Positions 6,044 through 52,439 are shown, counted from the stretch's first letter. The stretch is 64,000 nucleotides of DNA from Candidatus Dojkabacteria bacterium UBA2022 (GCA_002335495.1 DDBW01000006.1:72-64071); one strand, 5' to 3'. Made by a program: numbers and translations. The notes: generated by a model from the letters alone, not told the origin.

Positions 6044-6060
6044 TTTCTGTCAAGATGGAC

Positions 6061-7555: not shown

Positions 7556-8053
7556 ATGGTAAATTGGGGTAGGGATAATTTAAAATTTACGATTATGAAA
7601 AAGAGTACAATTATCTATATATTAATAGCTTTGATTGTTGTAGTAGGTGGAGTTGCCTTGTATATATATTTGAAAAATGGTGATGATGGGTCTTCCGGGG
7701 ATTCTTCCAATAATGGGGGGAATGTCCCTTCCGATAACGATGGAATTAAGGATGATGGTAGGGATTATGCTACATACAAATCAGTTGAGAAAGATGGCTT
7801 TAAGCTGGAATATAAATATGTAGGGGAGAGTACTTGGGATTATAGAATTACAGGGTCTTTGCCAAATCCTTGTTATGATGTAAAGGTGGATTCTTTAGTT
7901 AGAGAGAGCTATCCTGAACAGGTTGTATTCAATTTAACGGTTGTTGGACCAAAGAAGGATGTAGTGTGTGCACAGGTTATTAAGGAATACTCATACAGAG
8001 GAGTGTTTAATGCAAGTGAGAAGGCGAGTGTGGAGATGAATGTTGTAAATTAG
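7556..8053 (+). CDS. Hypothetical membrane-anchored protein with G/S/D-rich linker
   Basis: ORF; TM helix IIYILIALIVVVGGVALYIYL; low-complexity GDDGSSGDSSNNGG. Confidence 0.4.
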   Translation: MVNWGRDNLKFTIMKKSTIIYILIALIVVVGGVALYIYLKNGDDGSSGDSSNNGGNVPSDNDGIKDDGRDYATYKSVEKDGFKLEYKYVGESTWDYRITGSLPNPCYDVKVDSLVRESYPEQVVFNLTVVGPKKDVVCAQVIKEYSYRGVFNASEKASVEMNVVN

Positions 8054-17211: not shown

Positions 17212-17868
17212 ATGAAGGTCTTAATTGTTGAAGACGAAAAAGCATTAAGAACTCCTATGAGAAAGTTCCTCGAAAAGAGGAACTTCTCAGTGGAGGAGGC
17301 AGAAGATGGAGCAACGGCTCTATCTTTAGTCGCTACAGAAACCTATGACTGTATTCTACTCGACCTTAATCTCCCTGAGATAGATGGTATTACCGTTGCT
17401 AAAAAAATCAGAGAAGAGTCCCACACTCCAATTATTATGGTTACTGCAAGATCCCAGGTATATAATAAGCTGGAGGGATTTGAAGCCGGAACGGACGATT
17501 ACATTACCAAGCCTTTTGATTTAAATGAGTTGGTTGCCCGAATTGATGCGTTAATAAGGAGGAGTAGTACTAATAAAGAGGTTGAATTGAGGTTCGGAAA
17601 GGGTCTTCTTGATGTAAATAAAAATGTTATAAGCATTGGTAGAAAGGAAGTGCTTCTTTCAAATAAAGAAACTGCACTTCTCGAGTACTTTATTCGAAAC
17701 AAGGGAAGAGTTATCTCAGCTGAAGAGCTCTTAGAACACATATGGGGAAGGGACGTTGATATGTTTTCCGATACTGTAAAAACTCACATCAAGACTTTAA
17801 GATCAAAGATAGATCCGAAGAAGAATTTAATTAAGACAATTAGAGGGAAAGGGTATTTATATGAATAG
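17212..17868 (+). CDS. OmpR-family response regulator
   Basis: Receiver domain (DLNLPEIDG, TARSQV, KPF) plus winged-helix trans_reg_C. Confidence 0.9.
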   Translation: MKVLIVEDEKALRTPMRKFLEKRNFSVEEAEDGATALSLVATETYDCILLDLNLPEIDGITVAKKIREESHTPIIMVTARSQVYNKLEGFEAGTDDYITKPFDLNELVARIDALIRRSSTNKEVELRFGKGLLDVNKNVISIGRKEVLLSNKETALLEYFIRNKGRVISAEELLEHIWGRDVDMFSDTVKTHIKTLRSKIDPKKNLIKTIRGKGYLYE

Positions 17869-19000
17869 TGAAATTAGTTTTATTAAATCTATTAAGTTCA
17901 AACTTGCTATTTGGTATTCAACTCTACTATTTATCTTCTCAATTGGCTTTGTATTCATTTTAAACATAATTGCCGTTAAATATATTGAGAATCAGCCTGC
18001 GTTTCCACAGCCGGTGGGTATGTTTAGGCGTGGAGCAATTGTTAGAGAAATCACTGAGACTGAAAGACTCCTTTTGCACGAAGCTCGTATGAAGGATCTT
18101 GAAAATTTCAGGGAACTCTCTTTCTACTCAATCATCCCTATCGTGCTACTTAGTTTTGTGGGTGGTTACGTTATTGCTGATAGGAACTTGAGTCCTTTGG
18201 AAAAACTAAATGCGGAAATGAGAAGAAGAAATGTGGGTGATCTTTCAACTTCAATTGAGTTTAAGGATAGGGGGGATGAGATCTCCGAACTCATGAATAG
18301 TTTCAATGCTATGTCTGAACGTATACACAGAACTTTTGAATCGCAAAAGGAGTTTGTTGAAAATGTATCGCATGAAATCAAAACTCCATTGGCAATTATT
18401 CAGGCTAATTTAGATTCCGCCCTGGAGGATAAAAAGATATCTAGGGATGAATTGGAAGATATTTTAAATGAGTCAAAAAAGTCTGTAAAAACGATGAATC
18501 ATCTAACGGAGGATCTCCTCCTTCTCTCTGTTTTGCAACATGATATTGCTAAGGAAAAGGTTAGTATTAAGGATATCCTGGATAGTTGTGCTAGTGATGT
18601 GAAGAAGATTGCTAATGGGTTTGAAATTAACATTAACAGTAATGGAAAGGATGTCATGGTATACGGAAATAGTATGTTGCTTAGCCGGGCTATTTCAAAT
18701 ATCTTGGAGAACGCTGTTAAATACTCAGGTGGGAGGATTATTACAGTTAAGGTTGGTAGTAGCGACCAAAAAGACGTTGTTATTTCTATAGCTGACGATG
18801 GGGTTGGTATTCCAAAGGAACAGAGAAAGAAGATTTTTGAGAGATTCTATAGATTAGATAAAGGGAGGTCTAGGAAAGAGGGAGGTAGAGGACTTGGGCT
18901 TGCTATTACGAGTGAAATAATCAAGAACCATGGAGGTAGTATAAAGGTTGTAGATAGTGAGAAGGGGGCTGAGTTTGAAATTAGGCTTGAGAGTGCTTAG
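17861..19000 (+). CDS. Sensor histidine kinase (TM-HAMP-HisKA-HATPase_c)
   Basis: VSHEIKTPL H-box; N, G1, G2 boxes (DDGVGIP, GGRGLGLAI); overlaps the RR stop by 8 nt. Confidence 0.9.
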   Translation: MNSEISFIKSIKFKLAIWYSTLLFIFSIGFVFILNIIAVKYIENQPAFPQPVGMFRRGAIVREITETERLLLHEARMKDLENFRELSFYSIIPIVLLSFVGGYVIADRNLSPLEKLNAEMRRRNVGDLSTSIEFKDRGDEISELMNSFNAMSERIHRTFESQKEFVENVSHEIKTPLAIIQANLDSALEDKKISRDELEDILNESKKSVKTMNHLTEDLLLLSVLQHDIAKEKVSIKDILDSCASDVKKIANGFEININSNGKDVMVYGNSMLLSRAISNILENAVKYSGGRIITVKVGSSDQKDVVISIADDGVGIPKEQRKKIFERFYRLDKGRSRKEGGRGLGLAITSEIIKNHGGSIKVVDSEKGAEFEIRLESA

Positions 19001-19541
19001 TTGTCAGTTCGACTGCGACCTTTTCAATAACAGCCTCGAAGTTATTTGAAGTATCATAATAGTTAATTCCGGAACTTTTACAGATTTCATAAATACTATT
19101 ACTTCTTCTTATCCAACTTGCTATCCATTCCTTTAGTTGAGTTTCCTCAATATCATAGGTCCATTCTGCTTCACTTGGGTTTTCTCTTATATCAAATAAC
19201 TTCTTTTCAGGGGTTGTATCTTTATATCCCAGGAAACAAATTTTTACATATTCATAGTCTTTTATTGTTGCAAGGTCTTCTGGATTAAAGTTTGTTCCCT
19301 CCATTACATAATCGCTTTTATACCATCTATATTCTTCCATTATCCCTTTAAAGAATGGCCATAGTATCGGAGTCTTATCTCTATCACGCATGTCTTCCTG
19401 TATACCAAGTTGCGGATAGGCCTTTCCAAGAGCGTCCCTTAGAATATCGGTTGAGATATATGGAATAGAGTACTTTCTGTTAAGTAACTTTGCTAACTGG
19501 CTCTTACCACTTCTGGGTACTCCGGATATTACATATAGCAT
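18981..19541 (-). CDS. P-loop NTPase/kinase-like protein
   Basis: GVPRSGKS Walker A; 186 aa. Confidence 0.55.
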   Translation of the reverse strand: MLYVISGVPRSGKSQLAKLLNRKYSIPYISTDILRDALGKAYPQLGIQEDMRDRDKTPILWPFFKGIMEEYRWYKSDYVMEGTNFNPEDLATIKDYEYVKICFLGYKDTTPEKKLFDIRENPSEAEWTYDIEETQLKEWIASWIRRSNSIYEICKSSGINYYDTSNNFEAVIEKVAVELTTKHSQA

Positions 19542-27362: not shown

Positions 27363-27719
27363 TTTTTCTTAGTCTTCTAACCTTTTTCTAAAGGTTTTTG
27401 TTACTCATCAATCAGACTGTTACTTAGGCACTCTTAATTTCTTTCACAACATTTTACGCCGCCCTATAATTTCTATCTCTTGTTTTCCATATGGTTTAGG
27501 TGTACCTAGTGAGTAGGAAGCGATGACCCATCCTATACACTTGGTCGCTAGGAAGGATGGAGAGTTAATAGCGAACCCACTCCTAACTACTAGGGGGCGG
27601 TAGTACTTACATTCTCCCAAATAAACCTTATCTCACCTCCATATCTAACTTTTGTATATGAAAGGAGGATAGATAAAGGGTTTAAAATTTTCTCTCTATT
27701 TATTTAATATTCGATCACT

Positions 27720-29590: not shown

Positions 29591-30061
29591 TTAATTGTAA
29601 GGATTTTCAGGTTGCTTACCTAAAGTACTACCTTGATAATATTTAATTGCTTCTATTTCTGATTCCCATGTATTTTGATCATTTAATTCTTCTAACGTAA
29701 ATAATTTTGTTTTCATTGGTGAGTTTGAAATTATTTCTTCTGCCTCTTCTAAACTAATTTCAATTTGAAATAAAGTGTTTATCATCATACTGCCATCTTT
29801 AAATAAACTATCAAAGAATAGCTCTTCTGTATTAGCTGTTTCTATTTTTAATCCTACTTCTTCTTTTAACTCTCTTTTAAGCCCTTCAAGTAATGATTCA
29901 TTAATATGTACATGTCCACCGGGATGTTTATATTTCTTAGCTCCTTCATTCAGAACCATTAGGTATTTATTACCAACTACTATTAGTGCACTAGCTCTTA
30001 GACTAAATGACTTTACTGTGCCATTATCTGAAATAAATGTGTTTTTTCTGAACTCTCTCAT
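29591..30061 (-). CDS. NUDIX hydrolase
   Basis: GGHVHINESLLEGLKRELKEEVGL Nudix box. Confidence 0.75.
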   Translation of the reverse strand: MREFRKNTFISDNGTVKSFSLRASALIVVGNKYLMVLNEGAKKYKHPGGHVHINESLLEGLKRELKEEVGLKIETANTEELFFDSLFKDGSMMINTLFQIEISLEEAEEIISNSPMKTKLFTLEELNDQNTWESEIEAIKYYQGSTLGKQPENPYN

Positions 30062-30069: not shown

Positions 30070-30651
30070 TTATTTAATAAATTTTGTAAAAGAATCTACT
30101 GAATCAATACTGTTTTCTAAAACCGCCTTGTAAATATCAATACTCTTTACCTTATCTTTATACTTAATTCCATCAAAGTATGCTTCTTTTATTTTTAGTA
30201 TAATTTCTCTCTTTTCAGGATGCTCTTTTAGAATCTTTTCAAACGATTCAATGCAAGAAAGTACTAATTTTGTATATTCCTCATCTGGCCTAAGGTACCA
30301 AATATCAAATTTCCATTTTTCATTATTCTTAACGACAATTAATTCCCAATAGTACCCTTTAGGAAAATCATTTTCTGGATATGTTTGATAATCCGCTACA
30401 GCTACTGTTTGAAATTTATTAGAATCCAGAAGTCGTTTGGTAACTTCCTTCGCTTTCGTATTATGAATGTCATCAGATAGGACAAACAAATCTATATCGT
30501 TTCTATACATAACATCTAACCTAAGACTACCAATTACCACCACTTTTCCAATTGAGGAAAATAACTCAAATGCTTTTACATCTTGCAGTATATCCAGTGC
30601 AGTTCTCTTTTTCCAATCTGTGTTATCAAGAAGTGTGTTGCTCATATACAT
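30070..30651 (-). CDS. Nucleotidyltransferase (Pol-beta-superfamily NTase) domain protein
   Basis: VVVIGSLRLDVMYRNDIDLFVL, the GS...D.D motif. Confidence 0.6.
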   Translation of the reverse strand: MYMSNTLLDNTDWKKRTALDILQDVKAFELFSSIGKVVVIGSLRLDVMYRNDIDLFVLSDDIHNTKAKEVTKRLLDSNKFQTVAVADYQTYPENDFPKGYYWELIVVKNNEKWKFDIWYLRPDEEYTKLVLSCIESFEKILKEHPEKREIILKIKEAYFDGIKYKDKVKSIDIYKAVLENSIDSVDSFTKFIK

Positions 30652-30734
30652 AAAGTACTTCTTTATTTGAAAATAATCAATTAAATAAATGTTCGGAATC
30701 TGTTAGAAGGGTAGGCGGTGATAAATAGTAGTTG

Positions 30735-30815
30735 ACCTTATTAATAAAGAATTATTTCACCTTCGGGGGAATTGTGAAAAGGTATGGCGGGACATACGAG
30801 TCTGGAACCTATGTC
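30735..30815. repeat. Direct-repeat copy of the tRNA-Asp 3' flank (att-like), ending in a GACATA-N13-TATGTC hairpin that overlaps the methyltransferase stop codon
   Basis: About 80% identity over ~75 nt with 40088..40156 (ttaataa.ag.at.atttca..ttcgggg.aatt.tgaaaa.gtatggcgg). Confidence 0.5.
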
Positions 30816-31543
30816 TTTGTTATTACTGCGGCATATGTTGGATCATTAGCACTGAAATGTTTCTCTACTTTCCATCCGGTCTTTTTCAGAAGATCTTCTA
30901 ATTCTAACTGTGAAGTAAGAAGGTATTCAATCCAATCGCTTTCATAATCTTCAGCTTTAATTTTAATTCGTACTTGTCCGGGCATTCGACCCTTATTCGT
31001 ATTAAACTTGTGATAGTTTAGGTGTTCAGGGTCATCTGTTTGGTAGGGGTCTAATCCATCTCCAATTATTCTCGCATGCTCAGAAGTAATTTGGTGTAGC
31101 CTTTCTAAGGTTTTTTGTGCTAACTCTTTATTTCCTAGCAACCCAAGTCCAAGTCCGAAGAGGACCACAGTATCAAACTTCTCTCCATTTAATATATTAA
31201 TTTCTTCTATTGGAATAACTCGGGCATCTTTAACCCCTCTTTTTTTGCATACTTCAACTGCAAGTGGCGAATTATCGATTGCCGTTACTTCATGCCCTTT
31301 ATCTTGTAAATACATGGAAACGCGTCCCGCACCTGCTCCAATATCTAATACCTTACCTTGGGTGAACTGTATTGCTTCTTGTTGAACATGTGGCCAATCC
31401 TTGAATTCTGAAAAATAAGCAGGTGAGTATTGCGACTTTTCAGTGTGACCGTCATCTCTTTCTATTATTTGAGTTGGATTCTTGCCATTATAGGCATCTA
31501 GGAGATATTTCCCATATGCATCTGTTTTGTCATTAGTGGTCAT
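30809..31543 (-). CDS. Class I SAM-dependent methyltransferase
   Basis: VLDIGAGAGRVSMYL motif I. Confidence 0.75.
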   Translation of the reverse strand: MTTNDKTDAYGKYLLDAYNGKNPTQIIERDDGHTEKSQYSPAYFSEFKDWPHVQQEAIQFTQGKVLDIGAGAGRVSMYLQDKGHEVTAIDNSPLAVEVCKKRGVKDARVIPIEEINILNGEKFDTVVLFGLGLGLLGNKELAQKTLERLHQITSEHARIIGDGLDPYQTDDPEHLNYHKFNTNKGRMPGQVRIKIKAEDYESDWIEYLLTSQLELEDLLKKTGWKVEKHFSANDPTYAAVITKT

Positions 31544-31618
31544 ATAGGAGAGATTATATCAGAAGAAATTTCAGGGTACTAATAGAATAAGGGAATAACT
31601 GTAGTACAAAAAGCTTCT

Positions 31619-31800
31619 ACCTTCGAACAAAGGAGTACTAAAAACTGCTCAAAATATGGATATTTTCATCCACCAGGATGTGAAATTGATAATTAACTTT
31701 TTAAGAGGAAAATAGTGAAGCAACCAAGGGATTCCTAGAGATAGTGGACGGGTCTTGTCGCAACCTTGAAAGAATAGCGGGACATATGAGTCTGGTACCA
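31619..31800. repeat. Intergenic repeat family L, copy 1 (~180 nt)
   Basis: Shares a 55-nt identical core (gaagcaaccaagggattcctagagatagtggacgggtcttgtcgcaaccttgaaa) plus flanking similarity with 35677..35862. Confidence 0.5.
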
Positions 31801-31816
31801 TGTTGTATAATGAAGT

Positions 31817-32284
31817 ATGAAGATATATTTAACAGGAAGTTCAGGTAGCGGAAAAACTACGTATGCTAAAAAGTTAGCAGAATTAACAGGGGTGAGTTTA
31901 TATTCCACGGATGACTTTTATAATGAAAAAGATAAAAGGATGTTCACATTAGACGAGATTATGGCTGTTGTACCAATAGATTCTGATTGGGTTATTGAAG
32001 GGGCATATTACATTCCAGAATATATTAAAGCAGCAGACAAGGTGATTTATATAAGAATTGGTCCTATTAAGACTGCATGGAGGATTGTTAAAAGATGGAT
32101 GCAGAATAACGACTTGAGAAAGAAGTTTACACTTTCAGAAACACTTAAACTTGTTTATACAACTGTTCGTGATATGTATATTAGTGATGATGTTGATTTG
32201 AATTCTCCAGAGCAGAGGCATTATAAAGAAAGGGATAGGTATCTACTTTGCAAAAATAACGCAAAAGTATTAGAAGTGTTATAG
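31817..32284 (+). CDS. P-loop kinase-like protein (adenylate-kinase/topology-modulation FlaR-like)
   Basis: MKIYLTGSSGSGKTT Walker A at the N-terminus; 155 aa. Confidence 0.55.
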   Translation: MKIYLTGSSGSGKTTYAKKLAELTGVSLYSTDDFYNEKDKRMFTLDEIMAVVPIDSDWVIEGAYYIPEYIKAADKVIYIRIGPIKTAWRIVKRWMQNNDLRKKFTLSETLKLVYTTVRDMYISDDVDLNSPEQRHYKERDRYLLCKNNAKVLEVL

Positions 32285-32307
32285 ATGTGTATGTTTCTCC
32301 TATGAAT

Positions 32308-32364
32308 ATGGTGGGACATACACGTCTGGAACCCAAAATGAGACAAAAGAGACATATAAAAAAG
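32308..32364. repeat. Intergenic repeat family S, copy 1 (~60 nt)
   Basis: ggGACATAcacGTCTGGAACCcAAAATGAGACAAAagAGACAtATAAAAAAG; near-identical copy at 35174..35232. Confidence 0.45.
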
Positions 32365-32434
32365 TAGTAGATTGTGTCTCAGAAGAAAAGGTAGCCCTCA
32401 ATTTTTGGTTGAGGGCTATCCCTTTTGTTCTTTG

Positions 32435-32947
32435 TTATGCGTTTTGAAGTTGTTCGAGATATTCGAGAAGCTTTTCGAGAGCATCAATTGTATTTTCCAA
32501 TTGACTGTTTGACATTGCTGTCAAAGACCGCTCAAGATAAATCTTCCCTTCCTTTTCTTGAATCAACATCAATCCGCTCCAGCCTAAGCCGTTTTCTCCG
32601 CCATCAAAAAGCAATGGTACCACGGTATATTGTGGTGAGGAGTAAACAGACATAGGTGGTGTCTCAACTTCAGTTATCAGGTGCTTTATGGTCACATATC
32701 CGTTCGCATCCACTTTTACATGGTATACGTATTGCATCGGATAGTTGACCGCGGTCACTTTTAAACCATCATAGGGAACTTCTTCCCAGTTCATCGGCGT
32801 ATTGGTTGCCGTGTAGATGGTTTCGACCATTAAATTCACCCGAGTTTGAAGTTCGCTTGGAGTAGAATCTGGAGTCGGCGACGCCGGCTCGGGCTTTCCG
32901 CCACAAGCTGTAATAACAAAGAGCAATAAAACTAGGAACTTCTTCAT
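32435..32947 (-). CDS. Lipoprotein (signal peptide II, lipobox ITAC), unknown function; GC-richer than neighbours
   Basis: MKKFLVLLLFVITACGG; local GC about 45%. Confidence 0.5.
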   Translation of the reverse strand: MKKFLVLLLFVITACGGKPEPASPTPDSTPSELQTRVNLMVETIYTATNTPMNWEEVPYDGLKVTAVNYPMQYVYHVKVDANGYVTIKHLITEVETPPMSVYSSPQYTVVPLLFDGGENGLGWSGLMLIQEKEGKIYLERSLTAMSNSQLENTIDALEKLLEYLEQLQNA

Positions 32948-33071
32948 GAGTCACCTCTTGTTTTTTTAGTACCCTTTTCAGGATCCAAGTTATTATACCA
33001 TCCTATAGTATGACTGCGCACTAGTAGGATAATATGTTTCAGAAAATATGGGATTGTGATAGATTGTAATT

Positions 33072-33998
33072 ATGAAGACAACACCATTCTTTAGTAAGGA
33101 AATCAAAGTAGGTAGGATATTTAAGGCTTTAGGTGTTTCTTTGCTCTGTCTCGTTTCTATTACCACGGTTTTTACATTTGGTTATGATTCTCTTTTAACC
33201 TTATATAGTAAATATTCGGCTGCTTCGTATGTAAAGAACTCGGAAGTATTGGGTGTTGAGGATATGGCTGAGTTTACAGGCTCATATGGTGATTATAAGT
33301 ATGATGAAGCAGTCTGGGACTTTGAGATGGACAGAGAAGGGTATTACAAACTTGATGAGTTAATTACATACCCTGAGTTCTACCTTCCAGTAAATAAAGG
33401 GGCTGTTAAGGAAACTTGGTTATTAAAAGGACAAAGAAAACTAAACCTATCCTGTCCTGACTTGAGCAAAGAACTGGTTGTGGCAGGTAACTCATATGGT
33501 TGTACCCTTACTTACAATAATCAAGTGTTAAATAAGAATGTAAGGATGATTGGGACTTGCGATGATGTTGATAAACAAACAGGATGTAGTCTAGAAGTTG
33601 CATTTAGGGTCTATTCAAATAGATGGGGTTCAAGTAATGCAAATGAATACATAGTTACCTATGAGTGGGCTACTGGCTCCAAAGATGAAATAAGTGTTTA
33701 TAAACTAAGTGATGGAAAATCAACCCATCTTAAATTCAATGAAGATGGTAGAGTTGAAGATAAATGGTTTATTTCTTCATATGCTTCAGAGTTGTATGGA
33801 AAATATACAACTTGGGAGAATAAAGTAGATTTTAACGATGAAGTTGAACTTGTTACATTATTACATGAACCGAGCATGGGTAGTGGAAATAATCTCGAGA
33901 ATATATTCAAAATTTGGAAGGTTAAAGATAGTCAACTTATACGAATAAAGACCGTTTTTGATTTGTATAGAGACGATGAGGGGAGGTACTGGAATTAG
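33072..33998 (+). CDS. Hypothetical membrane-anchored extracytoplasmic protein
   Basis: N-terminal TM; 308 aa ORF. Confidence 0.4.
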   Translation: MKTTPFFSKEIKVGRIFKALGVSLLCLVSITTVFTFGYDSLLTLYSKYSAASYVKNSEVLGVEDMAEFTGSYGDYKYDEAVWDFEMDREGYYKLDELITYPEFYLPVNKGAVKETWLLKGQRKLNLSCPDLSKELVVAGNSYGCTLTYNNQVLNKNVRMIGTCDDVDKQTGCSLEVAFRVYSNRWGSSNANEYIVTYEWATGSKDEISVYKLSDGKSTHLKFNEDGRVEDKWFISSYASELYGKYTTWENKVDFNDEVELVTLLHEPSMGSGNNLENIFKIWKVKDSQLIRIKTVFDLYRDDEGRYWN

Positions 33999-34018
33999 CT
34001 ATTAATATAATTACTAGT

Positions 34019-35008
34019 ATGAAAATGACAAGGGAACAGGCACTTCGTACTCTTGGACTTGGGAAATCTCCTACTAGAGGAGAGATTACTTCCGCGTATC
34101 GAAAGCTTGTGAGCAAATTGCATCCGGATAAAAATTCTTCAAATTTAAGTAAATTTTTAGAGACTAAAGAAGCCTACGAATTTCTTAAAAAAGTAGGAAT
34201 AAAAAAGGGGCTTTCGGAGATTCGAGAGCTAATCTGCCCGTTTTGTTACGCTAATCTTACACTTTCGTTAGCAGAAAGGCGTAGAGATTGTGATATTGTC
34301 TGCCCACAATGCAAGAAGGACTTCTCTCTGGATTATGGCCTCGCTTTTTATTCTTCTTTGTCTACAATCACTTCTGGCAACTGTCCTTCCTGTAATACTA
34401 GTCTAGCATTTGATGTGAATGCTCGTGTTCCTGGAAGACTTATCTCCTGTGCTAATTGCAATGAGGAGTTTTATATCAATGAGATAAATGGAGAGGGGTT
34501 ACTGCCAAATACTCCTATGTTTTGTAGCTCGTGCTATGAACCTTTGGTGTTAAACCTCAAAGAAAGAAGAGGTGATTGTGACATATTTTGTTCAAGTTGC
34601 AATACTGAAACAAAATTTCGGGAGTTCGTTCTATTCAACACCAGCTTGAGCCCATATACACAAGGAGAATGCCCTAATTGTTGTGTGAAATTACAGTTCC
34701 CGATTGGATCAAGAATTCCCGATGAGTTAATAGAATGTCCCGATTGCAAGGAATCTTTTTACTTAGAAGAGGCTGAGAATCTTACAAGTGAGGCGATTGA
34801 GCAAAGTATTGCGCATAAACGCCGAGATATAAGGCTCATAGAAGGGCGTAACCAATTTAATAGGGGGCTTCTGGTACTGGCCATTGGAATAGTTGTTACT
34901 TTTATTTCTTATTCTACTGCTGAAGATGGCGGGACATATATTCTTACTTCAGGGGCTATTTTTTGGGGGCTTTGGGATGTTATTGCTGGATTTTTAAAAA
35001 TGTCCTAG
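34019..35008 (+). CDS. J-domain protein with four zinc-ribbon repeats and a C-terminal TM anchor
   Basis: HPDKN J-domain motif; four Cxx(C)...CxxC modules of ~45 aa; hydrophobic tail LLVLAIGIVVTFISY. Confidence 0.6.
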   Translation: MKMTREQALRTLGLGKSPTRGEITSAYRKLVSKLHPDKNSSNLSKFLETKEAYEFLKKVGIKKGLSEIRELICPFCYANLTLSLAERRRDCDIVCPQCKKDFSLDYGLAFYSSLSTITSGNCPSCNTSLAFDVNARVPGRLISCANCNEEFYINEINGEGLLPNTPMFCSSCYEPLVLNLKERRGDCDIFCSSCNTETKFREFVLFNTSLSPYTQGECPNCCVKLQFPIGSRIPDELIECPDCKESFYLEEAENLTSEAIEQSIAHKRRDIRLIEGRNQFNRGLLVLAIGIVVTFISYSTAEDGGTYILTSGAIFWGLWDVIAGFLKMS

Positions 35009-35173
35009 CTTTTTACCCCGTATACTTATGTAATCCCATTATTTTTAGTTGCGGTAAAAGGTTTTTTTGAGCTAGAAGAAGTTATTTGGATTTTATGATG
35101 ATTTTTTAATTATAACTCAATCCCCATAAAGGTTTTTAAGCATAGTAAACGAGACTTGTTGGAACCTGTGAAG

Positions 35174-35232
35174 TATGGCGAGACATATGAGTCTGGAACC
35201 TAAAATGAGACAAATAAGACAGTATAAAAAAG
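35174..35232. repeat. Intergenic repeat family S, copy 2
   Basis: See 32308..32364. Confidence 0.45.
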
Positions 35233-35275
35233 GAAAGGGTGCTTGTAAAAAATTAAATTATGGTAGAATCCTAGA

Positions 35276-35668
35276 ATGAAAGTATACTTGGCAGGACAAC
35301 CTAGTGAATATGATAAGTGGAAAGAGAGCTTTAGGGAAGTTAAGGGTTTTGACTTTTATGACCCCGAGATAGATTCAGATCAATCCTCATCTGATACTTT
35401 CTTTCCCCAAGATCTTAAGGCAGTTTCAGAAGCGGATATCCTAATGGCGAATCCCGGCTTGGCTCCCTCGGAAGGTACATGGATAGAGATTGGATATTTC
35501 TTAGCTCTTAATACTGAAAAGCCTGGGGATAGATGTAATAGATTAATCATTATTTGGGATAAAGAAAGGATACCTTGGTCTATTGAATTTGTTAAGAAAG
35601 CAGGAATTATAGTATCAACTGTAGAGGAGGCAATAAATAAGCTAGAAGAAATTAGGTTGGAGAAATAA
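35276..35668 (+). CDS. Nucleoside 2-deoxyribosyltransferase-like protein
   Basis: MKVYLAG start and a WIEIGYFLAL Glu-containing motif in a ~130 aa Rossmann-like protein. Confidence 0.45.
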   Translation: MKVYLAGQPSEYDKWKESFREVKGFDFYDPEIDSDQSSSDTFFPQDLKAVSEADILMANPGLAPSEGTWIEIGYFLALNTEKPGDRCNRLIIIWDKERIPWSIEFVKKAGIIVSTVEEAINKLEEIRLEK

Positions 35669-35676
35669 GCGTTTCA

Positions 35677-35862
35677 CCTTCGAACCAAGGGTTATTAAAA
35701 CTCCCTCTTTTTTGACCTTTTTCATACACCAGGATACGAAATTGAGAATTAACTTTTTAAGGGGGAAATAATGAAGCAACCAAGGGATTCCTAGAGATAG
35801 TGGACGGGTCTTGTCGCAACCTTGAAAAAATGGCGAGGGATATGGAATGGTATCCGAACTTT
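35677..35862. repeat. Intergenic repeat family L, copy 2
   Basis: See 31619..31800. Ends with a GGATA-N8-TATCC hairpin + CGAACTTTTA, also found at ~39048..39078. Confidence 0.5.
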
Positions 35863-35923
35863 TAGCTCAAATAATTCAGTTAATTACTTAGCGATTCCAA
35901 AATTAATGAATTACAAATAGCCT

Positions 35924-36811
35924 CTATACTTCTTGTCCATTTAATTGACTGCGTATTTCTTTGGCTATTAAGTGAGTGAATTTATGACCTGGAACATCAA
36001 TCTTAAAATGTCCATTTATTCTATATCCAACTAATGCAAGATCTCCAATTGTGTCTAACATTTTATGCATTGCAGGCTCATTCTCAGCTTTTAATGGAGT
36101 TAAAAACTTTGATTCAGTAAATGTTATTACAGGTGATTGTCTAGGGTCTTCGGGAAGAGCTTTATAAACAGATCTTATTCCATTCCATTTAGTCAAATCA
36201 GTAGGATCTAGAGGTGATCTTAAAAAAGTTCTAGCCCATGATACTTTCTTCTCAAAATCATCATTCTCAGAATAATTTACAGTATATGTATTTATCGGGG
36301 CGGGGTATGGAGCTGTTAATTCTATAGATAATCCATTAGAATTTGAAGATAATGTTGCCTTTCTACCCTCAAATTCAGGCTGTTCAAAATAAAGATTTTC
36401 ATGTATCTCTACTACCGTCCTTTTAGCACCTTGTACAGTAATACCCGCTTCTTTTAATGCTTGTGCAAAAGGTTCAGCTGATCCATCCTGAGCTGGGATT
36501 ATTTTTTGATCCAGTTTAATTTCAATATTGTCAATTCCCATCCCCCAAATTGCTGCTAGAAGGTGTTCAACCATTAAGACTTCTGCATCGTCCTTTGTTA
36601 ATGATGTTGTGTGAAGCTCCGTGAAGTTCAAATAATCAGAAAGTGCAGGGATTTTTGTTCCATTAACATTAAAAACAATCCCTGTATTTACCTCGGCTGG
36701 AAGTAATTGCATAGATATCTTAGTAGAGGAAAAAAGAGACTGACCTTCAAAAGTTATTTCTTTAGCTATTGTTCTTTGAGATTTATTACTTTCTTTAAGG
36801 GATAATTTCAT
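35924..36811 (-). CDS. lpxC: UDP-3-O-acyl-N-acetylglucosamine deacetylase (LpxC) homolog
   Basis: VEHLLAAIWGMGIDNIEI (E-H pair), HKMLDTIGDL (His/Asp zinc ligands) and GH near the C-terminus align with E. coli LpxC catalytic positions. Confidence 0.7.
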   Translation of the reverse strand: MKLSLKESNKSQRTIAKEITFEGQSLFSSTKISMQLLPAEVNTGIVFNVNGTKIPALSDYLNFTELHTTSLTKDDAEVLMVEHLLAAIWGMGIDNIEIKLDQKIIPAQDGSAEPFAQALKEAGITVQGAKRTVVEIHENLYFEQPEFEGRKATLSSNSNGLSIELTAPYPAPINTYTVNYSENDDFEKKVSWARTFLRSPLDPTDLTKWNGIRSVYKALPEDPRQSPVITFTESKFLTPLKAENEPAMHKMLDTIGDLALVGYRINGHFKIDVPGHKFTHLIAKEIRSQLNGQEV

Positions 36812-36838
36812 ACGATTCCGTCCTATAATATGTTATAA

Positions 36839-38044
36839 TTGCTCACTACTTATTATAGCACACTCCAAATGAGTAACTACGAGAAGCTTGATAGGATAAA
36901 AACGATTACTAAAGAGATTAATCCCAATGTTGTTTTTAACTGCGAAACTGTTTCTTTCGGAAAAGACCGTTTTACAAACATTTACTGGTTAGAATTGAAG
37001 AAAGATTCTTTAAAATTCAAATTGTCATATGCTGACAAACTATTACCATTGAAGGATTTTGAGAAAAATGATTCAAGTGTAATTGCTGGGATAAACGTTG
37101 GAGGCTTTTATCTATCTGACGATAACTTAACTCCACCAGTACAATATTACAATTTAGCTGTTGATGAGGGGCATATTAAACAGCTTCCTAGCAATACTCG
37201 TAGTTGCATTCAGACTTACAATGGAAATCTTACAAAATCATTAGTAATAGCTCATGGGTTAATGCGAATCGGTCAAAAGGATTTCTCATGGTCTGGCTTA
37301 AATGAAAAACAGGACTCGCAATTGATTGTGTATGGAATGTTCAATCTTGATATAACTAAAAATAAGTTTAGGAACCCTTCGAATGCAAGAGAAACAGTTG
37401 AGACCTCTAGATTTATAAAAGCGAATAATAACGAGATCTTATTGGGAATAGGCACATCAGGAACTAATCCGTCTGTGCAACGAATATCAAAAAATACTCT
37501 TGATTTGATTCAGTACAGTTTTATCTTAAAGGGTAATAAAAACTTGCTAAAAGAAATAAGTGTAGGGAATGAAATAACTAGGGTGAGGTTTGGTCATGTT
37601 GAACATAATGCAAGTGCAAGTCTTTGCAGCGGATCATTTATTTTAGGAAAAGATAAGGTTGATCTTGATAAAAATCTTCGTAATGAGTTGATACATCCTG
37701 TTGATGGTAATCCCAAACCAATGTCTGAGGAATATAAGAAGTCTTGGAGTGTGATATTAGAAACGAACGATTCATATATTTTATTTATTAATGATGCACG
37801 ACCGAAAGTACCCAATCAAAATGGTATAACGGTTTACGAGCTTCAAGACTTAATCCTTAAAAAGTTTGATTATACATGGGGAGTTGTTGGTGATAGCGGT
37901 CAGAGTAGTAAGTTATTTGTTAGGGAAAATGGAGAAAGAACAGTTTATGGAAATCTGCATTATATAAATTATTCTAAAACTGAATCTTATTGGGATGGAA
38001 TAAACGGTCGCCCTGTAAGTGTAGGATTACTCGCTTATGCTTGA
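36839..38044 (+). CDS. Hypothetical protein, possibly phosphodiester-glycosidase (DUF2233/NAGPA-like) family
   Basis: SVIAGINVGGFY and C-terminal WGVVGDSGQSS resemble that family; weak. Confidence 0.35.
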   Translation: MLTTYYSTLQMSNYEKLDRIKTITKEINPNVVFNCETVSFGKDRFTNIYWLELKKDSLKFKLSYADKLLPLKDFEKNDSSVIAGINVGGFYLSDDNLTPPVQYYNLAVDEGHIKQLPSNTRSCIQTYNGNLTKSLVIAHGLMRIGQKDFSWSGLNEKQDSQLIVYGMFNLDITKNKFRNPSNARETVETSRFIKANNNEILLGIGTSGTNPSVQRISKNTLDLIQYSFILKGNKNLLKEISVGNEITRVRFGHVEHNASASLCSGSFILGKDKVDLDKNLRNELIHPVDGNPKPMSEEYKKSWSVILETNDSYILFINDARPKVPNQNGITVYELQDLILKKFDYTWGVVGDSGQSSKLFVRENGERTVYGNLHYINYSKTESYWDGINGRPVSVGLLAYA

Positions 38045-38906
38045 TCACAGCACTCTACAATATGAACAATTACTGTCTGATGTTACGCAAACCCTATCCG
38101 AGAAAGAGCGTGCACTGTTTGATCTACCTAGAAGGTTAATGGGACCTGAATCTGTTAATGAAATAAGAGAAATATTAACAAACATGGGATTTGTGCGATT
38201 TGAAGGAGGCCCAGTACTTATGGGAATCAATGATGGATTACCATGCTCAATTGAAGGAACTAGATTAAATGAAACTCCTGCACGTGAACTATATGTCCCT
38301 CCTTTTTATGTATCAAAGTATACCGTATCTAATTTGGAGTATGAGCAATTTGATAAGAGGCATAGTAGGACTAATACTTCGTCAGGTGATAAAAATCCGG
38401 TAACATGCGTTACATACGGTAAAGCAGTCGGCTATGCATTGTGATTAAGTGAACAAACAGGACTTGCTTTCTCACTCCCAACAGAGCCTCAATATGTAGC
38501 TGTAACTGCTCCGTATGGATGGCAATATCCGTATCAGCAGGAGGGTTTGCCTAAAAGAAAAGAGCAAAATCACTTTAGAGCTTTCCCTGATAAGTATCCT
38601 GACGGAGAGCTAGGCTCAACTTTAGAGGTTGATGACCCAATCGGTACTCCTAATCATTTGGGACTATTCCATGCAACAGGTAATGTCTCAATCTTTTCGT
38701 TAGGTCATTATCCAACAGCAGGACATTGGGGCTCCACATCAGATGGTTCCTATATTGTCGCATTGGGTGGTAACTTTAGATTATGTCCATTTGGTACACG
38801 AAATATAACTAGGGGTATCCTTGATGTTACTGGAATTGCCGATACAGTTGGAATAAGATTGGTTCACCCTGATCCTGAGTATTTATTGAGCCAAAAGCGA
38901 GATTAA
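38037..38906 (+). pseudogene. Formylglycine-generating-enzyme (FGE/SUMF1)-domain gene interrupted by an in-frame TGA at ~38442
   Basis: ORF 38037..38444 (FYVSKYTVSNLEYEQF...NPVTCVTYGKAVGYAL*) continues in the same frame after the TGA as LSEQTGLAFSLPTEPQYVAVTAPYGW..., reaching ORF 38547..38906 (GNVSIFSLGHY...GIRLVHPD). Together these make one FGE domain. Confidence 0.55.
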
Positions 38907-39171
38907 ATTATTGAGAAGGTGTTTCCCTGCTAAAGTTCGGGTTTCCGTTTACCCTACTGTGTTGATAATCTATTACCGAACCATAAGTTGGCTTATTCTA
39001 TATGTTTTTTTACTAAGTTCGGGGAAATATCTTTCAGAAACGGAGGATATGGAACGGTATCCGAACTTTTAATTATGGCGATGATAGTATCCTTGTGCAT
39101 ACCTTGATATATAAATATCTTTAGATCTGCTACTATAAAGTGATACTAAATAATATAACCCTGTCACTGAA

Positions 39172-40038
39172 ATGAATATTTATGTTTGCTCTACTTCAGC
39201 TCCCTTACCGGTAGGTGAAAACGATCTGGAAGTCGCTAAGAAATTTCTTGAATCGTTTGGTCATACTGTAACATATTCCGGAAATATGTTTGCAAGAACC
39301 GGAAATACTGCTGGAACTATAGAACAAAGAATTGAAGATCTCCATGAAGGATTTGCAAATGATAAATATGATTTAGTTCTTGCTGCTACAGGAGGTTTTA
39401 ACAGTAATGAAATATTACCGTACATTGATTATGATCTTATCTCAAAGAGTAAAAAGACATTTTGTGGGCATAGTGATAACACTACCTTATGTTTGAACCT
39501 CTATCAAAAGAGTAAGATCAGAAGTGTATATGGACTTTGTTACGAATATTTGAGATTTTCAAAGTCTAAGGATGAACTTATAGATTATAATGATGCTCTG
39601 ATATCAGCCCCCAATTATAAAGCAAACCTTGTAAGTCAATTATCTACTGGAAAAGTCTTAAGAGGAGGAGAGATGAAAGGTACTCTGATAGGCGGAAATC
39701 TCTCTGTAATAAACTGGTTGTTAGGTACAAAGTACGGTATGGAACTAACTGACGATTCTATTCTCTTCATAGAGGACGATGAAGACTCGCATGGCTCATA
39801 TTGGCAAATGTATCTAAGGAAGTTAGAAATGCTTGGATATTTTAATACTATCAAAGGTTTAATTATTGGAAAGACTCCCTTTACAGAATTCAACGAGGGG
39901 GCAGATATGAGAAGCATATTAGATACAGTCTTGAAAGACTACAAATTCCCTGTGATATATGATGCCTATTTTGGACATCTAAGGGATAACACTATGCTCA
40001 ATATTGAATTAGGAATTAATATTGCTCTTAACGTCTAA
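39172..40038 (+). CDS. LD-carboxypeptidase (peptidase S66, LdcA/MccF-like)
   Basis: ATGGFNSNEILPYIDY...FCGHSDNTTLCL...ED..SHGSYW pattern. Confidence 0.65.
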   Translation: MNIYVCSTSAPLPVGENDLEVAKKFLESFGHTVTYSGNMFARTGNTAGTIEQRIEDLHEGFANDKYDLVLAATGGFNSNEILPYIDYDLISKSKKTFCGHSDNTTLCLNLYQKSKIRSVYGLCYEYLRFSKSKDELIDYNDALISAPNYKANLVSQLSTGKVLRGGEMKGTLIGGNLSVINWLLGTKYGMELTDDSILFIEDDEDSHGSYWQMYLRKLEMLGYFNTIKGLIIGKTPFTEFNEGADMRSILDTVLKDYKFPVIYDAYFGHLRDNTMLNIELGINIALNV

Positions 40039-40087
40039 ATCCCTCAGATAATAGTGTTCGGGTACCGTTAGGTAGAGTAGGCGGGGA

Positions 40088-40156
40088 TAAATAATAACTA
40101 AGCTTGTTAATAAGAGGATATTTCAGTTCGGGGAAATTATGAAAATGTATGGCGGA
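40088..40156. repeat. tRNA-Asp 3'-flank repeat (att-like), partner of 30735..30815
   Basis: See 30735..30815; overlaps the last ~7 nt of tRNA-Asp (tggcgga). Confidence 0.5.
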
Positions 40157-40226
40157 GTGGACGGGACTCGAACCCGCAACCTTCGCAGTGACAGTGCGAT
40201 GCTCTAACCAATTGAGCTACCACTCC
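40150..40226 (-). tRNA. tRNA-Asp (anticodon GTC), CCA encoded
   Basis: Reverse complement folds as GGAGTGG acceptor, anticodon stem TCGCA/TGCGA, loop CTGTCAC, T-arm GCGGG-TTCGAGT-CCCGT, CCA. Confidence 0.9.
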
Positions 40227-50467: not shown

Positions 50468-50553
50468 GCCGAGGTGGTGAAATTGGCAGACACGCTACCT
50501 TGAGGTGGTAGTGGGAGTTAAATCCCTTGCAGGTTCAAGTCCTGTCCTCGGCA
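50468..50553 (+). tRNA. tRNA-Leu (anticodon GAG), long variable arm, CCA not encoded
   Basis: GCCGAGG acceptor; anticodon loop TTGAGGT; T-arm AGGTTCAAGTCCT; close to canonical bacterial tRNA-Leu(GAG). Confidence 0.8.
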
Positions 50554-50580
50554 TATGTGTGGTATAATCTCACACTATTG

Positions 50581-50657
50581 GGGCGATTAGCTCAGCTGGT
50601 TAGAGCACCTCGTTTACACCGAGGGGGTCATAGGTTCGAATCCTATATCGCCCACCA
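50581..50657 (+). tRNA. tRNA-Val (anticodon TAC), CCA encoded
   Basis: GGGCGAT acceptor; anticodon stem CCTCG/CGAGG, loop TTTACAC; T-arm ATAGG-TTCGAAT-CCTAT. Confidence 0.9.
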
Positions 50658-52439
50658 TTTATCCTCGTCTACCCCGAAGCTCCGTTCAAGATCGTTCATA
50701 ATCTCGCTTGGTAATCTAAGTCTTATGTTCAATTTGTATGGAATCATTTGTCCTTTTTTCTGCCTTCCTGCAATGATATCCTTTTTTGTCACAGGTCTTG
50801 AAAAGACAATTATGTCATGAATAATCAATTGCAAGATATCTCTTAATTGTTCTCTGTCTTTGTACAAGTTTTCTAGCTCCTCTAGATACTTCTTTTTGAA
50901 GAGCTCAAATACTTTGTTATATCCTTCATCTATCGTCAGATCTGCCAATCTAGATTCAAGTTCATCATAATCAGCTTTATTCTTTTTATATAGTTTATCT
51001 TCTTCATCCATTTGCTCTGTAAATTGGTTGTCAGATAGATGCCCATTTTTATGTTGAAACTTTATGCTATCTATAGTTCTGCTGTGACTATTTATTAGCC
51101 TTTTAAGAACCGATAATCTCTTATTTAACATCTCTTTTTCAAGTCTGCGAGATTCTAACTTTAGTTGATGGTTATATACATCTCTCGGATTTCGTATAAG
51201 CTTTTTTAGGAAATCAACAACATACTCCTCAATGCCGTAAGCTGGAAGAGGAAGGCAACTACAGTGGATAGAACTATGCTTGGGACTTTTCCTTTTACAT
51301 TTGTAATAGTAAGAATACTTTCCAGTCCCTTTATTAACTAGCTTTCTTTCTCCCACCCAGTTATGTGGTTGCATGTCAATTTCAGGATTGTAACAATTTG
51401 CACATCTTAATAATCCCCTTAGTAAATAAATACTATCACTATGCATTCCTTGATCTCTACGAGTTATTTCGTCTTTGAGTAACTTCTCCTGTACAGCTAC
51501 AAAAGTCGGTTTATCAATAATTGCATCATGTATGTGTTCGGATAGTACCCTTTCTTTATCCTTACCCTTCTTCTTTGAGTACCAATACTCACCCATATAT
51601 ATCTTGTTTCTCAGAATATGCTTAATGACATTTGAGTCCCAAAAGTATGGTTTATTAACTTTTCTTCTTTTCCCTCTATATTTCTCATGCATCTCAGCAG
51701 AAACACTTGGAGACGGAACTTTATGTTGCATTAACCAATCAGCGATAGCCTGTCTACTTGAGTTTTCCCATAAATACATGTTAAAGATTTGTCTAATATA
51801 GTTAGCTTCCTCTTCTAGTATTACTAACTTTTTATCTAGGTCCTTCTTGTATCCATAAGGAGCATGTGACCCCATAAATACACCTTCTTTAGATGCAGAG
51901 GCTTTACCTGTATGAGTTCTTTCCATGATATTTTCAAGCTCAAGTTCTGCGATGACTCCTATAATCCCTAAAACTGCCTTTCCGAAAGGGTTAGTGGTAT
52001 CAATACTCTCATTTGCAGAAATAAACTCAATGTCTTTCTCGTCAAAATAATCAATTATTTCAAGAAGAACTTTTAACCTACGAGCAAATCTGTCAATTTT
52101 GTAGACAGCAACAACATCAAACGGTTTTTGTAAACCTTCTGTATTATCTATATCCGAAATCATTCTCCTGAAAGCAACTCTCTCATCCATAGGTAGAGTT
52201 CCACTCGCACCCTCATCTATATAGATATATTGGTCGTCTATTACATTTCCCTTCTCATCCATCCCTCCGGCATAGACATATCTATCCTTTCCTTCAATAG
52301 TTTTCCCTTTAGCCTTTATAAGATTTAGAAGTGTCTCTTTTTGCATCGGAATGCCGAACTTTTCTACTTGTTCATCGGTTGAAACCCTTATATACAAGGC
52401 AACTCTTTTAACATTTTCTTGGTCAAATCTGTTTTGCAT
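50643..52439 (-). CDS. Large serine recombinase (resolvase-recombinase-zinc-ribbon-coiled-coil integrase)
   Basis: ALYIRVSTDEQ catalytic Ser region; recombinase domain; Cys-cluster zinc ribbon (CANCYN...CKRK...HCSC); last 5 codons (KWWAI*) are antisense to the tRNA-Val acceptor/CCA. Confidence 0.85.
   Translation of the reverse strand: MQNRFDQENVKRVALYIRVSTDEQVEKFGIPMQKETLLNLIKAKGKTIEGKDRYVYAGGMDEKGNVIDDQYIYIDEGASGTLPMDERVAFRRMISDIDNTEGLQKPFDVVAVYKIDRFARRLKVLLEIIDYFDEKDIEFISANESIDTTNPFGKAVLGIIGVIAELELENIMERTHTGKASASKEGVFMGSHAPYGYKKDLDKKLVILEEEANYIRQIFNMYLWENSSRQAIADWLMQHKVPSPSVSAEMHEKYRGKRRKVNKPYFWDSNVIKHILRNKIYMGEYWYSKKKGKDKERVLSEHIHDAIIDKPTFVAVQEKLLKDEITRRDQGMHSDSIYLLRGLLRCANCYNPEIDMQPHNWVGERKLVNKGTGKYSYYYKCKRKSPKHSSIHCSCLPLPAYGIEEYVVDFLKKLIRNPRDVYNHQLKLESRRLEKEMLNKRLSVLKRLINSHSRTIDSIKFQHKNGHLSDNQFTEQMDEEDKLYKKNKADYDELESRLADLTIDEGYNKVFELFKKKYLEELENLYKDREQLRDILQLIIHDIIVFSRPVTKKDIIAGRQKKGQMIPYKLNIRLRLPSEIMNDLERSFGVDEDKWWAI

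Follow-up and report, generated by a model that had tools for sequence, protein, structure and literature searches.

A 64,000-nt stretch of the genome of a Candidatus Dojkabacteria bacterium (candidate division WS6, in the Candidate Phyla Radiation, CPR) contains an array of six gene cassettes directly 3' of a tRNA-Asp gene. The whole stretch is referred to as the window, and positions are counted from its first letter. The cassettes measure 534–3,207 nt, hold one to three genes each and together fill window positions 30,789–40,153. In all likelihood they are non-autonomous units that entered serially at the 3' end of tRNA-Asp through site-specific recombination, with the enzyme acting in trans. 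The original prediction, made from the sequence of the window alone, had proposed serial site-specific insertion at this gene with mobilisation in trans. The proposal is upheld by empty and occupied sites in two other lineages, where the breakpoint lies exactly at the tRNA 3' end. Further support comes from relatives that keep synteny 5' of the gene and carry unrelated cargo 3' of it, and from cassette C3, which is more than 99% identical in other contexts.

Annotation covered positions 17,491–88,467 (~71 kb) of the source contig DAOMYW010000002.1 (181 kb; metagenome-assembled genome GCA_035437765.1), on which window position 1 is position 17,560. Related loci, designated by L and a number, are stretches around the TsaC-TsaE fusion gene that were retrieved from collections of genomes and metagenomes; they total ~1 Mb. 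Further arrays were sought via the GGDEF gene, and most of the contigs found in this way stop ~1 kb past the tRNA. The G+C content is 36.5% in the array and 36.9% in the whole window, and composition is flat over the region.

Architecture of the array

The extreme 3' end of tRNA-Asp, CCGCCA (TGGCGG on the + strand), is the insertion point. Each of the six units starts with a right arm (T), which stands in place of the tRNA body, and all but one end in a recognisable left arm (F). Between left and right arm lies a core, which reads TGGCGG (or TAGCGG, TGGTGG, TGGCGA) at five junctions and ACGGAG at one (39040). The core is 3–7 nt long (CGG, usually TGGCGG or ACGG) and is equivalent to the end of the tRNA, from the last bases of the acceptor stem through the discriminator to the CCA. 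It is the only part common to every junction and the tRNA end, and it is present in a single orientation at all seven junctions, the tRNA end included. The features are as follows.

40150–40226, −: tRNA-Asp(GTC), intact, CCA encoded (ARAGORN; Rfam RF00005, 74.9 bits)
39045–40153, +: cassette C1, nearest the tRNA, 1109 nt, ends in the TGGCGG core; T2 arm 39040–39071; LD-carboxypeptidase gene 39172–40038 (+); FA arm 40048–40149 (Pfam S66/S66C, nhmmer, junction sequences)
35838–39044, +: cassette C2, 3207 nt, end is a CCA-less ACGG core; T2 arm 35832–35864; LpxC-like gene 35924–36811 (−); gene of a 391/401-aa unknown protein 36839–38044 (+); formylglycine-generating enzyme (FGE)-sulfatase gene 38037–38906 (+) with one in-frame TGA; FA arm 38929–39044
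35180–35837, +: cassette C3, 658 nt; T1ext arm 35174–35231; nucleoside 2-deoxyribosyltransferase-like (NDT-like) gene 35276–35668 (+), with Pfam and PHROG matches; FB arm 35672–35837, including T3 block 35797–35824
32313–35179, +: cassette C4, 2867 nt; T1ext arm 32307–32363; bidirectional terminator-like hairpin 32390–32420; lipoprotein gene 32435–32947 (−); gene of a 308-aa unknown protein 33072–33998 (+); J-domain/zinc-ribbon gene 34019–35008 (+); partial FB arm 35112–35179
31779–32312, +: cassette C5, 534 nt; T1 arm 31775–31799; P-loop kinase-like gene 31817–32284 (+)
30789–31778, +: cassette C6, farthest from the tRNA, 990 nt; T1 arm 30783–30811; S-adenosylmethionine (SAM) methyltransferase gene 30809–31543 (−); FB arm 31615–31778, including T3 block 31741–31768
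30689–30788, +: distal array boundary, FA-type arm and TGGCGG core (nhmmer FA match)
30070–30651, −: flank gene of 193 aa with a GS...DIDL nucleotidyltransferase-like motif, on the chromosomal side of the array
29591–30061: NUDIX flank gene, adjoining the 193-aa gene

Among the right arms, T1 (GACATAYGAGTCTGGAACC) follows the core at 30789, 31779, 32313 and 35180, and the copies at 32313 and 35180 bear a 30-nt extension, CYAAAATGAGACAAA.AGACAGTATAAAAA (T1ext). With the core included, TGGCGG-GACATAYGAGTCTGGAACC is placed at 30785, 31775, 32309 and 35176. T2 (GGATATGGAAYGGTATCCGAAC) has copies at 35838 and 39045. The left arms belong to the families FA and FB. FA is marked by two GTTCGGG motifs and is found at 30689–30788, 38929–39044 and 40048–40149. 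The FB copies at 31615–31778 and 35672–35837 are 82% identical overall and 90.5% identical across 126 nt, and a partial copy lies at 35112–35179. The T3 block inside FB (31741 and 35797), GTGGACGGGTCTTGTCGCAACCTTG, is a true 3' fragment of tRNA-Asp (0 of 500 shuffles) that reaches from the variable loop as far as the acceptor stem. C5 is the sole cassette whose right end lacks a recognisable left-arm family.

Families T1, T2, T3, FA and FB are confined to 30.7–40.2 kb of the window, and all copies share the tRNA's orientation, read here on the + strand. No arm copy was found elsewhere in the 64-kb window or in the 7 kb beyond it, and no further arm families or sites occur left of 30689. For the other three tRNA genes of the window, no copy of the 3' end lies in the vicinity. 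The repeat that had been noticed between the two ends of the array is real and longer than first described, pairing 30708–30809 with 40074–40174 at 79 of 103 positions (76.7%), a score reached by none of 1000 shuffles. The internal copies are also real, but they form distinct conserved families rather than the degenerate tRNA-flank copies for which they had been taken. One of them, assigned to 39085, was misplaced: the junction lies at 39040–39066 and has the ACGG core, and the TGGCGA at 39076 is probably due to chance. Short hairpins, said to follow each copy, exist in T1 (AGAC-N6-GTCT) and T2 (GGATA-N8-TATCC) but are weak and poorly conserved.

The junctions are mosaic. FA is joined to the tRNA, T1 and T2, and FB is joined to T1 and T2 in the window and to the tRNA in relatives, as expected if the arms reassort at a fixed crossover. 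The FA-T2 junction (38926–39070) forms a 140-nt imperfect palindrome with a fold z of −2.4 as DNA and −3.3 as RNA, and it has terminal inverted repeats of 9–17 nt (AAAGTTCGG...CCGAACTTT). The FB junctions fold no better than shuffled sequence (z above 0). A search of the arms for structured RNA with Rfam at E ≤ 1 matched tRNA only. A function of the arms as promoters or terminators was considered and rejected, the counts being not above those in shuffles and the sole clear terminator-like hairpin being that at 32390–32420.

The array is 84% coding, and the arms make up more than half of its non-coding DNA (824 of 1,516 nt). Four of the six cassettes carry a single gene. Pfam confirmed the predicted gene calls, except that one methyltransferase lies inside the array and not two. 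Cargo genes are on both strands, with divergent gene pairs within C2 and C4. A change of gene orientation had been described at almost every repeat but is seen at three of the five internal junctions.

Cassette C2 has two features of its own. Its LpxC homologue is clear (Pfam 1.8e-53) and forms a divergent pair with the genes of the 391/401-aa unknown and FGE-like proteins; CPR bacteria are not expected to make lipid A. The in-frame TGA of the FGE-sulfatase gene, at 38442–38444, is also present in the Joint Genome Institute assembly (L007). This stop (...GYAL*LSEQTG...LPTEPQ) falls at a position that we take to be a conserved tryptophan of the FGE family. The codon reflects either a nonsense mutation (TGG to TGA) or descent of the cassette from a lineage in which TGA is read as sense.

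On the chromosomal side, the 193-aa flank protein looks like a minimal nucleotidyltransferase and has no match in Pfam, PHROG, NCBIfam or the PDB. Homologues of its gene adjoin the same kind of junction in L164, L165 and L004.

Cassettes in related genomes

Insertions at the tRNA-Asp 3' end were captured in two other lineages. In L018, 2,419 nt (5953–8371) are inserted exactly at the tRNA 3' end and are absent from L017 and L019, which come from other assemblies of the same population; the 200 nt on either side are 100% identical to L017/L019. The cargo consists of a 333-aa unknown protein and a gene resembling those of tryptophanyl- and tyrosyl-tRNA synthetases (TrpRS/TyrRS). The insertion opens with T1ext straight after ...GCGGGACGG, and it closes with an FB arm and the 28 nt TTGAAACTACTATAAGTTAGCGGGACGG, after which the tRNA begins. 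A 28-nt direct repeat flanks the inserted DNA. In the other lineage, L021 and L022 carry 2,026 nt exactly at the tRNA 3' end, encoding a major facilitator superfamily (MFS) transporter and a serine hydrolase, and L023 is without them. The junctions of this insertion have only ACGG in common, and a T2-like arm stands at its start.

Cassette C3 was found in three further contexts (L164–L166) by look-up of its exact protein. In L164, C3 is 99.2% identical to the window copy and comes after the 193-aa gene and its FA arm, both together only 91.3% identical to the window; C4–C6 are absent. In L165, C3 is 99.5% identical and comes after a homologue of the 193-aa gene that is only 68.7% identical at the nucleotide level. 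Here the FA arm is a different one with an ACGG core, and identity to the window begins at the core. In L166, C3 is again 99.5% identical and ends at TGGCG(G). Next comes a perfect 19-nt copy of a tRNA-Asp 3' end (GATGGACGGGACTCGAACC) that belongs to no tRNA gene, and an unrelated gene lies beyond it. A near-identical unit of 655 nt amid neighbours of 9–31% divergence, with boundaries at a core of 3–6 nt and no relation between the sequences outside them, indicates site-specific recombination and not homologous exchange or vertical descent. For the LD-carboxypeptidase cassette no recent copies were found elsewhere, the closest homologues being at most 46% identical and in unrelated context.

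The gene order 5' of tRNA-Asp is conserved in L003, L004, L010 and others and includes GGDEF, thioredoxin, TsaC-TsaE, TsaD, enolase, Band-7, tRNA-Leu and tRNA-Val. 3' of the tRNA, the genes of one genome are unrelated to those of the next. No homologues of the cargo of the array were found 3' of tRNA-Asp in L003, L004, L010, L016, L018 or L021, where only the NUDIX and 193-aa flank genes recur. The original prediction had suggested a synteny comparison with relatives, and in the comparison that was run the 3' cargo proved variable and the region not conserved.

The arms were searched for with nhmmer profiles (T1ext, T2, FA, FB). In the ~1 Mb of related loci, all significant arm matches lie 3' of tRNA-Asp and in its orientation. 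In L003 the tRNA flank is FB, and T1ext, T2 and an additional type of arm, T4, follow at 2.6, 4.3 and 5.5 kb. The tRNA flank of L010 is of family FA, with a T2 arm at a distance of 1.1 kb. FB adjoins the tRNA in L018, which has three further junctions, and FA adjoins it in L095. A degenerate T1ext is found in L004 (~6553–6580), in the usual orientation, between a kinase-like and a Fic gene. In addition, L004 contains a putative T1-like sequence, CCAGACTCATAATGT (~7907–7936), flanked by the Fic gene on one side and the homologue of the 193-aa gene on the other; it is inverted and would be the sole arm in the opposite orientation.

The arms are 82–90% identical between genomes whose TsaC-TsaE proteins are 55–79% identical. 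The NUDIX homologue lies 1.26 kb from tRNA-Asp in L010 and 10.1 kb from it in the window, so that 9.4 kb of the window are extra DNA relative to L010. One single-gene cassette, bounded by T2 and FA, lies between the NUDIX homologue and the tRNA in L010. The encoded CCA also varies. The core at 39040 lacks CCA like the tRNA genes of L010 and L016–L023, and the present tRNA end in the window has it.

Across the loci, the cargo includes methyltransferases, kinases, NUDIX and HD hydrolases, transporters, cell-wall enzymes and Fic. L003 carries an extra aminoacyl-tRNA synthetase-like gene with a class II core and an anticodon-binding domain (4557–5852), and the TrpRS/TyrRS-like gene of L018 lies at 7253–8272. 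Such extra synthetase-like genes may serve resistance or paralogue functions.

Two further observations concern the vicinity of the insertion point. L021 (6500–7700) and L023 (6700–7900) differ over ~1.2 kb, with 66–84% identity in strains that are otherwise 99–100% identical. The divergent stretch begins ~400 nt 5' of tRNA-Asp and may represent a hypervariable or recombined gene beside the hotspot. Several independent short assemblies of this and related strains break at or within the tRNA-Asp 3' end (L159 ends at 40158, L152 starts at 40167 and L154 starts at ~40198), which is consistent with a branched assembly graph in a population that is heterogeneous at the insertion point. The assemblies L159 and L160 both begin at ~38651–38659, within the FGE gene.

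Proposed mechanism and rival explanations

In the mechanism that we propose, the site of a cassette would have two parts. A right arm of 25–50 nt (T1 or T2, elsewhere T4 or a tRNA-Asp 3' fragment) would form the end far from the tRNA, and a left arm of 80–165 nt (FA or FB) the end near it. The tRNA-Asp end and an F-core-T site would exchange strands within the 3–7 nt core, which is CGG (on the + strand, TGGCGG or ACGG). Once a cassette is in, the old junction would have the T arm where the tRNA body had been, and the new trailer of the tRNA would be the F arm. The mature tRNA would always be restored, and the trailer and the encoded CCA would change with each insertion. A new cassette would enter beside the tRNA and displace the older ones outward, giving the order chromosomal flank, core, repeated units of T, cargo, F and core, and finally the tRNA. 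The newest cassette would accordingly lie beside the tRNA, as it appears to do in L018 and L021. Exchange in the core accounts for the mosaic junctions, the restored tRNA and the coming and going of CCA.

The recombinase would be encoded elsewhere in the genome or on another element. Its identity and class are matters that we infer; the short shared core would be easier to reconcile with a serine recombinase, which crosses over at 2 bp, or with a tyrosine recombinase tolerant of heterology than with a classical tRNA-targeting integrase. No recombinase or transposase was found among ~45 open reading frames (ORFs) in ~17 cassettes of seven genomes by Pfam, NCBIfam, PADLOC, PHROG and PDB searches, and genes for integration or transfer were likewise absent. 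Relatives contributed ~35 of these ORFs, from downstream of tRNA-Asp in L003, L004, L010, L016, L018, L021 and L023. The precomputed Pfam matches for the 71-kb contig stretch contain no tyrosine recombinase, and none is found beside tRNA-Asp in the relatives. That no integrase would be present had been predicted, and there is indeed no PF00589 gene across contig positions 17,491–88,467. The ORFs of unknown function (193, 308 and 401 aa, and 333 aa in L018) were considered as hidden recombinases and rejected, having no signal in Pfam, NCBIfam, PHROG, PADLOC or PDB. In a small sample of loci, viral contigs, phages and plasmids, no parent element was found. IMG/VR contains no exact match to T1ext or T2, and its 48 matches to the FB motif are chance matches by nhmmer; blastn against phage and plasmid collections gave no arm matches.

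The sole recombinase in the 71 kb is a large serine recombinase of 598 aa with Resolvase, Recombinase and Zn_ribbon_recom domains, encoded at window positions 50643–52439 (−). The last 15 nt of its ORF lie within the 3' end of a tRNA-Val gene (50581–50657). The gene heads an insertion of ~11 kb (to ~61600) that also encodes helix-turn-helix (HTH) regulators, an SNase, an M78 peptidase and DUF4411, and that is absent after tRNA-Val in L011 and L004. The far end of the insertion showed no copy of the tRNA-Val 3' end. The family of this recombinase is widespread in CPR. Its presence indicates that enzymes inserting at extreme tRNA 3' ends operate in this genome. As the enzyme of the array it was rejected as anything beyond a circumstantial candidate, its closest relatives being without a link to tRNA-Asp arrays.

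Several points weigh against serial insertion by an enzyme in trans. Taken singly, the T1 arms have no significant tRNA likeness beyond the 6–7 nt core. Action in trans was deduced from the absence of a recombinase in the cassettes, and a circular intermediate is presumed. The further contexts of C3 rest on contigs of 1.1–1.4 kb from automated assemblies (L164–L166); chimeric joins at repeats are unlikely there, as the shared exact runs are shorter than 31 nt. The T1 variant of L164 could reflect homologous recombination between two T1 arms and not exchange at the core. Finally, the scan for arm copies away from tRNA-Asp comprised only ~71 kb from the source genome and, from Dojkabacteria, ~150 kb.

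The array might alternatively have arisen by accretion of decayed classical islands, that is, of once-autonomous units that lost their integrase and are now fixed or cis-mobilizable remnants. Integrase-less remnants are well documented to accrete at tRNA and transfer-messenger RNA (tmRNA) genes (PMC5704250, PMC3146451, 10.1101/2020.12.28.424599), and T3 is the type of scar that a classical integrase with a long identity segment leaves, which hints at an older classical integration. We nevertheless regard this origin as unlikely. The seven genomes with their ~17 cassettes hold no integrase, and no gap in the array could accommodate the remnant of an integrase gene. Cassettes of 534–658 nt were counted as having complete arms. 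Three recently moved cassettes (0.66, 2.0 and 2.4 kb) contain cargo only, and a clean and independent loss of the integrase from every unit is not parsimonious. For the same reasons, the 84% coding density, the lack of room for a remnant and the recently moved cassettes devoid of a recombinase, the suggestion in the original prediction that an integrase has since been lost is the less likely of its two options.

Homologous recombination after DNA uptake, with the arms and the tRNA gene as homology anchors and no dedicated recombinase, would explain why the arms are conserved between genomes, and it may contribute. CPR bacteria are generally thought to be naturally competent, the L018 cassette is flanked by a perfect 28-nt repeat, and the T1 variant of L164 is compatible with an exchange inside T1. 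As a full account this is improbable. The L021 and L023 junctions have just ACGG in common, and in L165 and L166 the outer sequence is unrelated to the window and identity stops or starts at the 3–6 nt core, so that there is no outer anchor. Nor does homologous recombination predict the strict single orientation and the restriction to one tRNA. The original prediction had also raised a lineage-specific repeat of the repetitive extragenic palindrome (REP) or miniature inverted-repeat transposable element (MITE) type, whose likeness to the tRNA flank would be secondary and which would separate ordinary chromosomal genes. The palindromic FA-T2 junction with its terminal inverted repeats does resemble a MITE, but the FB-type junctions are not palindromic, and the unit that varies between genomes is arm-cargo-arm and not the junction element. 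Moreover, in all sequence examined the families are restricted to the 3' side of tRNA-Asp and to its orientation: all copies of the contig lie within 9.5 kb, with none elsewhere in the 71-kb stretch and none away from tRNA-Asp in relatives. Such a repeat is a very improbable explanation.

Three known types of element were also considered and rejected. Palindrome-associated transposable elements (PATEs) of the IS200/IS605 type do not match, as the hairpins of the T and F arms are unrelated to each other and the annotated 71 kb contain no Y1_Tnp/TnpA or OrfB genes. A dif/Xer site of the kind used by integrative mobile elements exploiting Xer (IMEX) does not match either; the cumulative GC skew rises through the locus without inversion and gives no sign of a terminus at 40 kb, and the site lies at the end of a tRNA gene. 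Membership of the integrons was discarded given that no intI lies beside the array, no attC R''/R' boxes (RYYYAAC / GTTRRRY) are present and gene orientation is mixed.

Elsewhere in the window, two intergenic regions deserve mention. Between tRNA-Leu(GAG) and tRNA-Val(TAC), L003 carries ~1.5 kb (17864–19346) with a 210-aa ORF of Ig-like domains, at a place where the window has 27 nt (50553–50581) and L004 has 9 nt. The CCA of tRNA-Leu is encoded in L003 and not in the window. The L003 insert may be a mini-insertion of the same kind at another tRNA 3' end. Upstream of a camelysin-like gene is a 357-nt intergenic region (27363–27719) that is unusually long for this compact genome and has G+C-rich stretches; Rfam gives no match to it at the gathering threshold.

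Comparison with known systems

The genomes of CPR bacteria (Patescibacteria) are tiny, and little is understood of the ways in which accessory genes reach them. In the searchable literature we came upon no account of such mobile elements in Dojkabacteria. The locus offers a compact way to add single genes without a recombinase for each gene and with an essential tRNA left undisturbed. With cassette ends defined within a few bases and a near-identical cassette in diverged genomes, the system is directly testable. The arms can be used to catalogue the cassette pool of Dojkabacteria in metagenomes and to find the recombinase by co-occurrence, and they could possibly serve as an integration tool in organisms currently without genetics. 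We tentatively suggest that Dojkabacteria, and perhaps other CPR, possess an integron-like platform for gene capture. The tRNA-Asp end would act as attI and F-CGG-T as attC, and an unlinked recombinase, possibly of the large serine family, one member of which lies at tRNA-Val 10 kb away, would insert, excise and shuffle cassettes and allow them to pass between lineages.

Integrons (IntI, attI, attC) gather small non-autonomous cassettes, mostly of a single gene and each with its own site, at one chromosomal site, with the recombinase encoded outside the cassettes. The array shares with them the small cassettes with their own sites, the one fixed insertion site, the diverse cargo and, presumably, the outside recombinase. 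It differs from integrons in having a tRNA end in place of attI and in lacking the R''/L''-L'/R' architecture and GTTRRRY boxes, only FA-T2 being palindromic. Moreover, its cargo lies in both orientations and appears to have its own promoters.

IMEX at dif and the pdif modules of Acinetobacter plasmids are recombinase-less modules that are moved by the host recombinase. Like the array, these Xer-dependent elements consist of small modules without a recombinase and with short flanking sites, and they can form tandem arrays at one site. However, the array lies at tRNA-Asp and not at dif, its sites are direct and not inverted, and it has no evident dif-like sequence.

In streptococci, cis-mobilizable elements (CIMEs) accrete in tandem at tRNA 3' ends together with ICEs (integrative and conjugative elements) as well as IMEs (integrative and mobilizable elements), as in the ICESt1-related elements and the tRNA-Lys islands (PMC5704250). 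CIMEs resemble the cassettes in being att-bounded units without an integrase that lie in one orientation at a tRNA 3' end, the newest beside the gene and the recombinase elsewhere; however, they are by definition what decay has left of larger autonomous elements, and they usually have a neighbouring partner that carries an integrase (PMC5704250). In the array, the units are only 0.5–3.2 kb long with one to three genes, two-part arms abut the cargo, neither a partner nor an integrase remnant was seen in the seven genomes, and identity to the tRNA spans 3–7 nt.

The ssrA islands of Dehalococcoides also stand in tandem, are bounded by repeats of the 3' end of one small-RNA gene and occur in a streamlined genome, and some units without an integration module were proposed to be cis-mobilizable (PMC3146451). 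Their enzyme is a serine recombinase (PMC3146451). However, they are much larger than the cassettes, and most carry a six-gene integration module that includes the CcrB-like DsiB, with a 20-bp ssrA repeat and a crossover in the T-loop (PMC3146451).

The tycheposons of Prochlorococcus likewise place flexible genes beside specific tRNAs, push older material inward and leave partial tRNAs scattered (10.1101/2020.12.28.424599). They use both tyrosine and large serine recombinases (10.1101/2020.12.28.424599). A tycheposon carries its own recombinase and often replication genes, and material without these hallmarks is deemed an immobile remnant (10.1101/2020.12.28.424599), whereas in the array the integrase-free units are themselves discretely mobile. 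The array differs from all of these systems in its two-part arms, the minimal core at the very end of the tRNA, the consistent absence of a recombinase and its host lineage.

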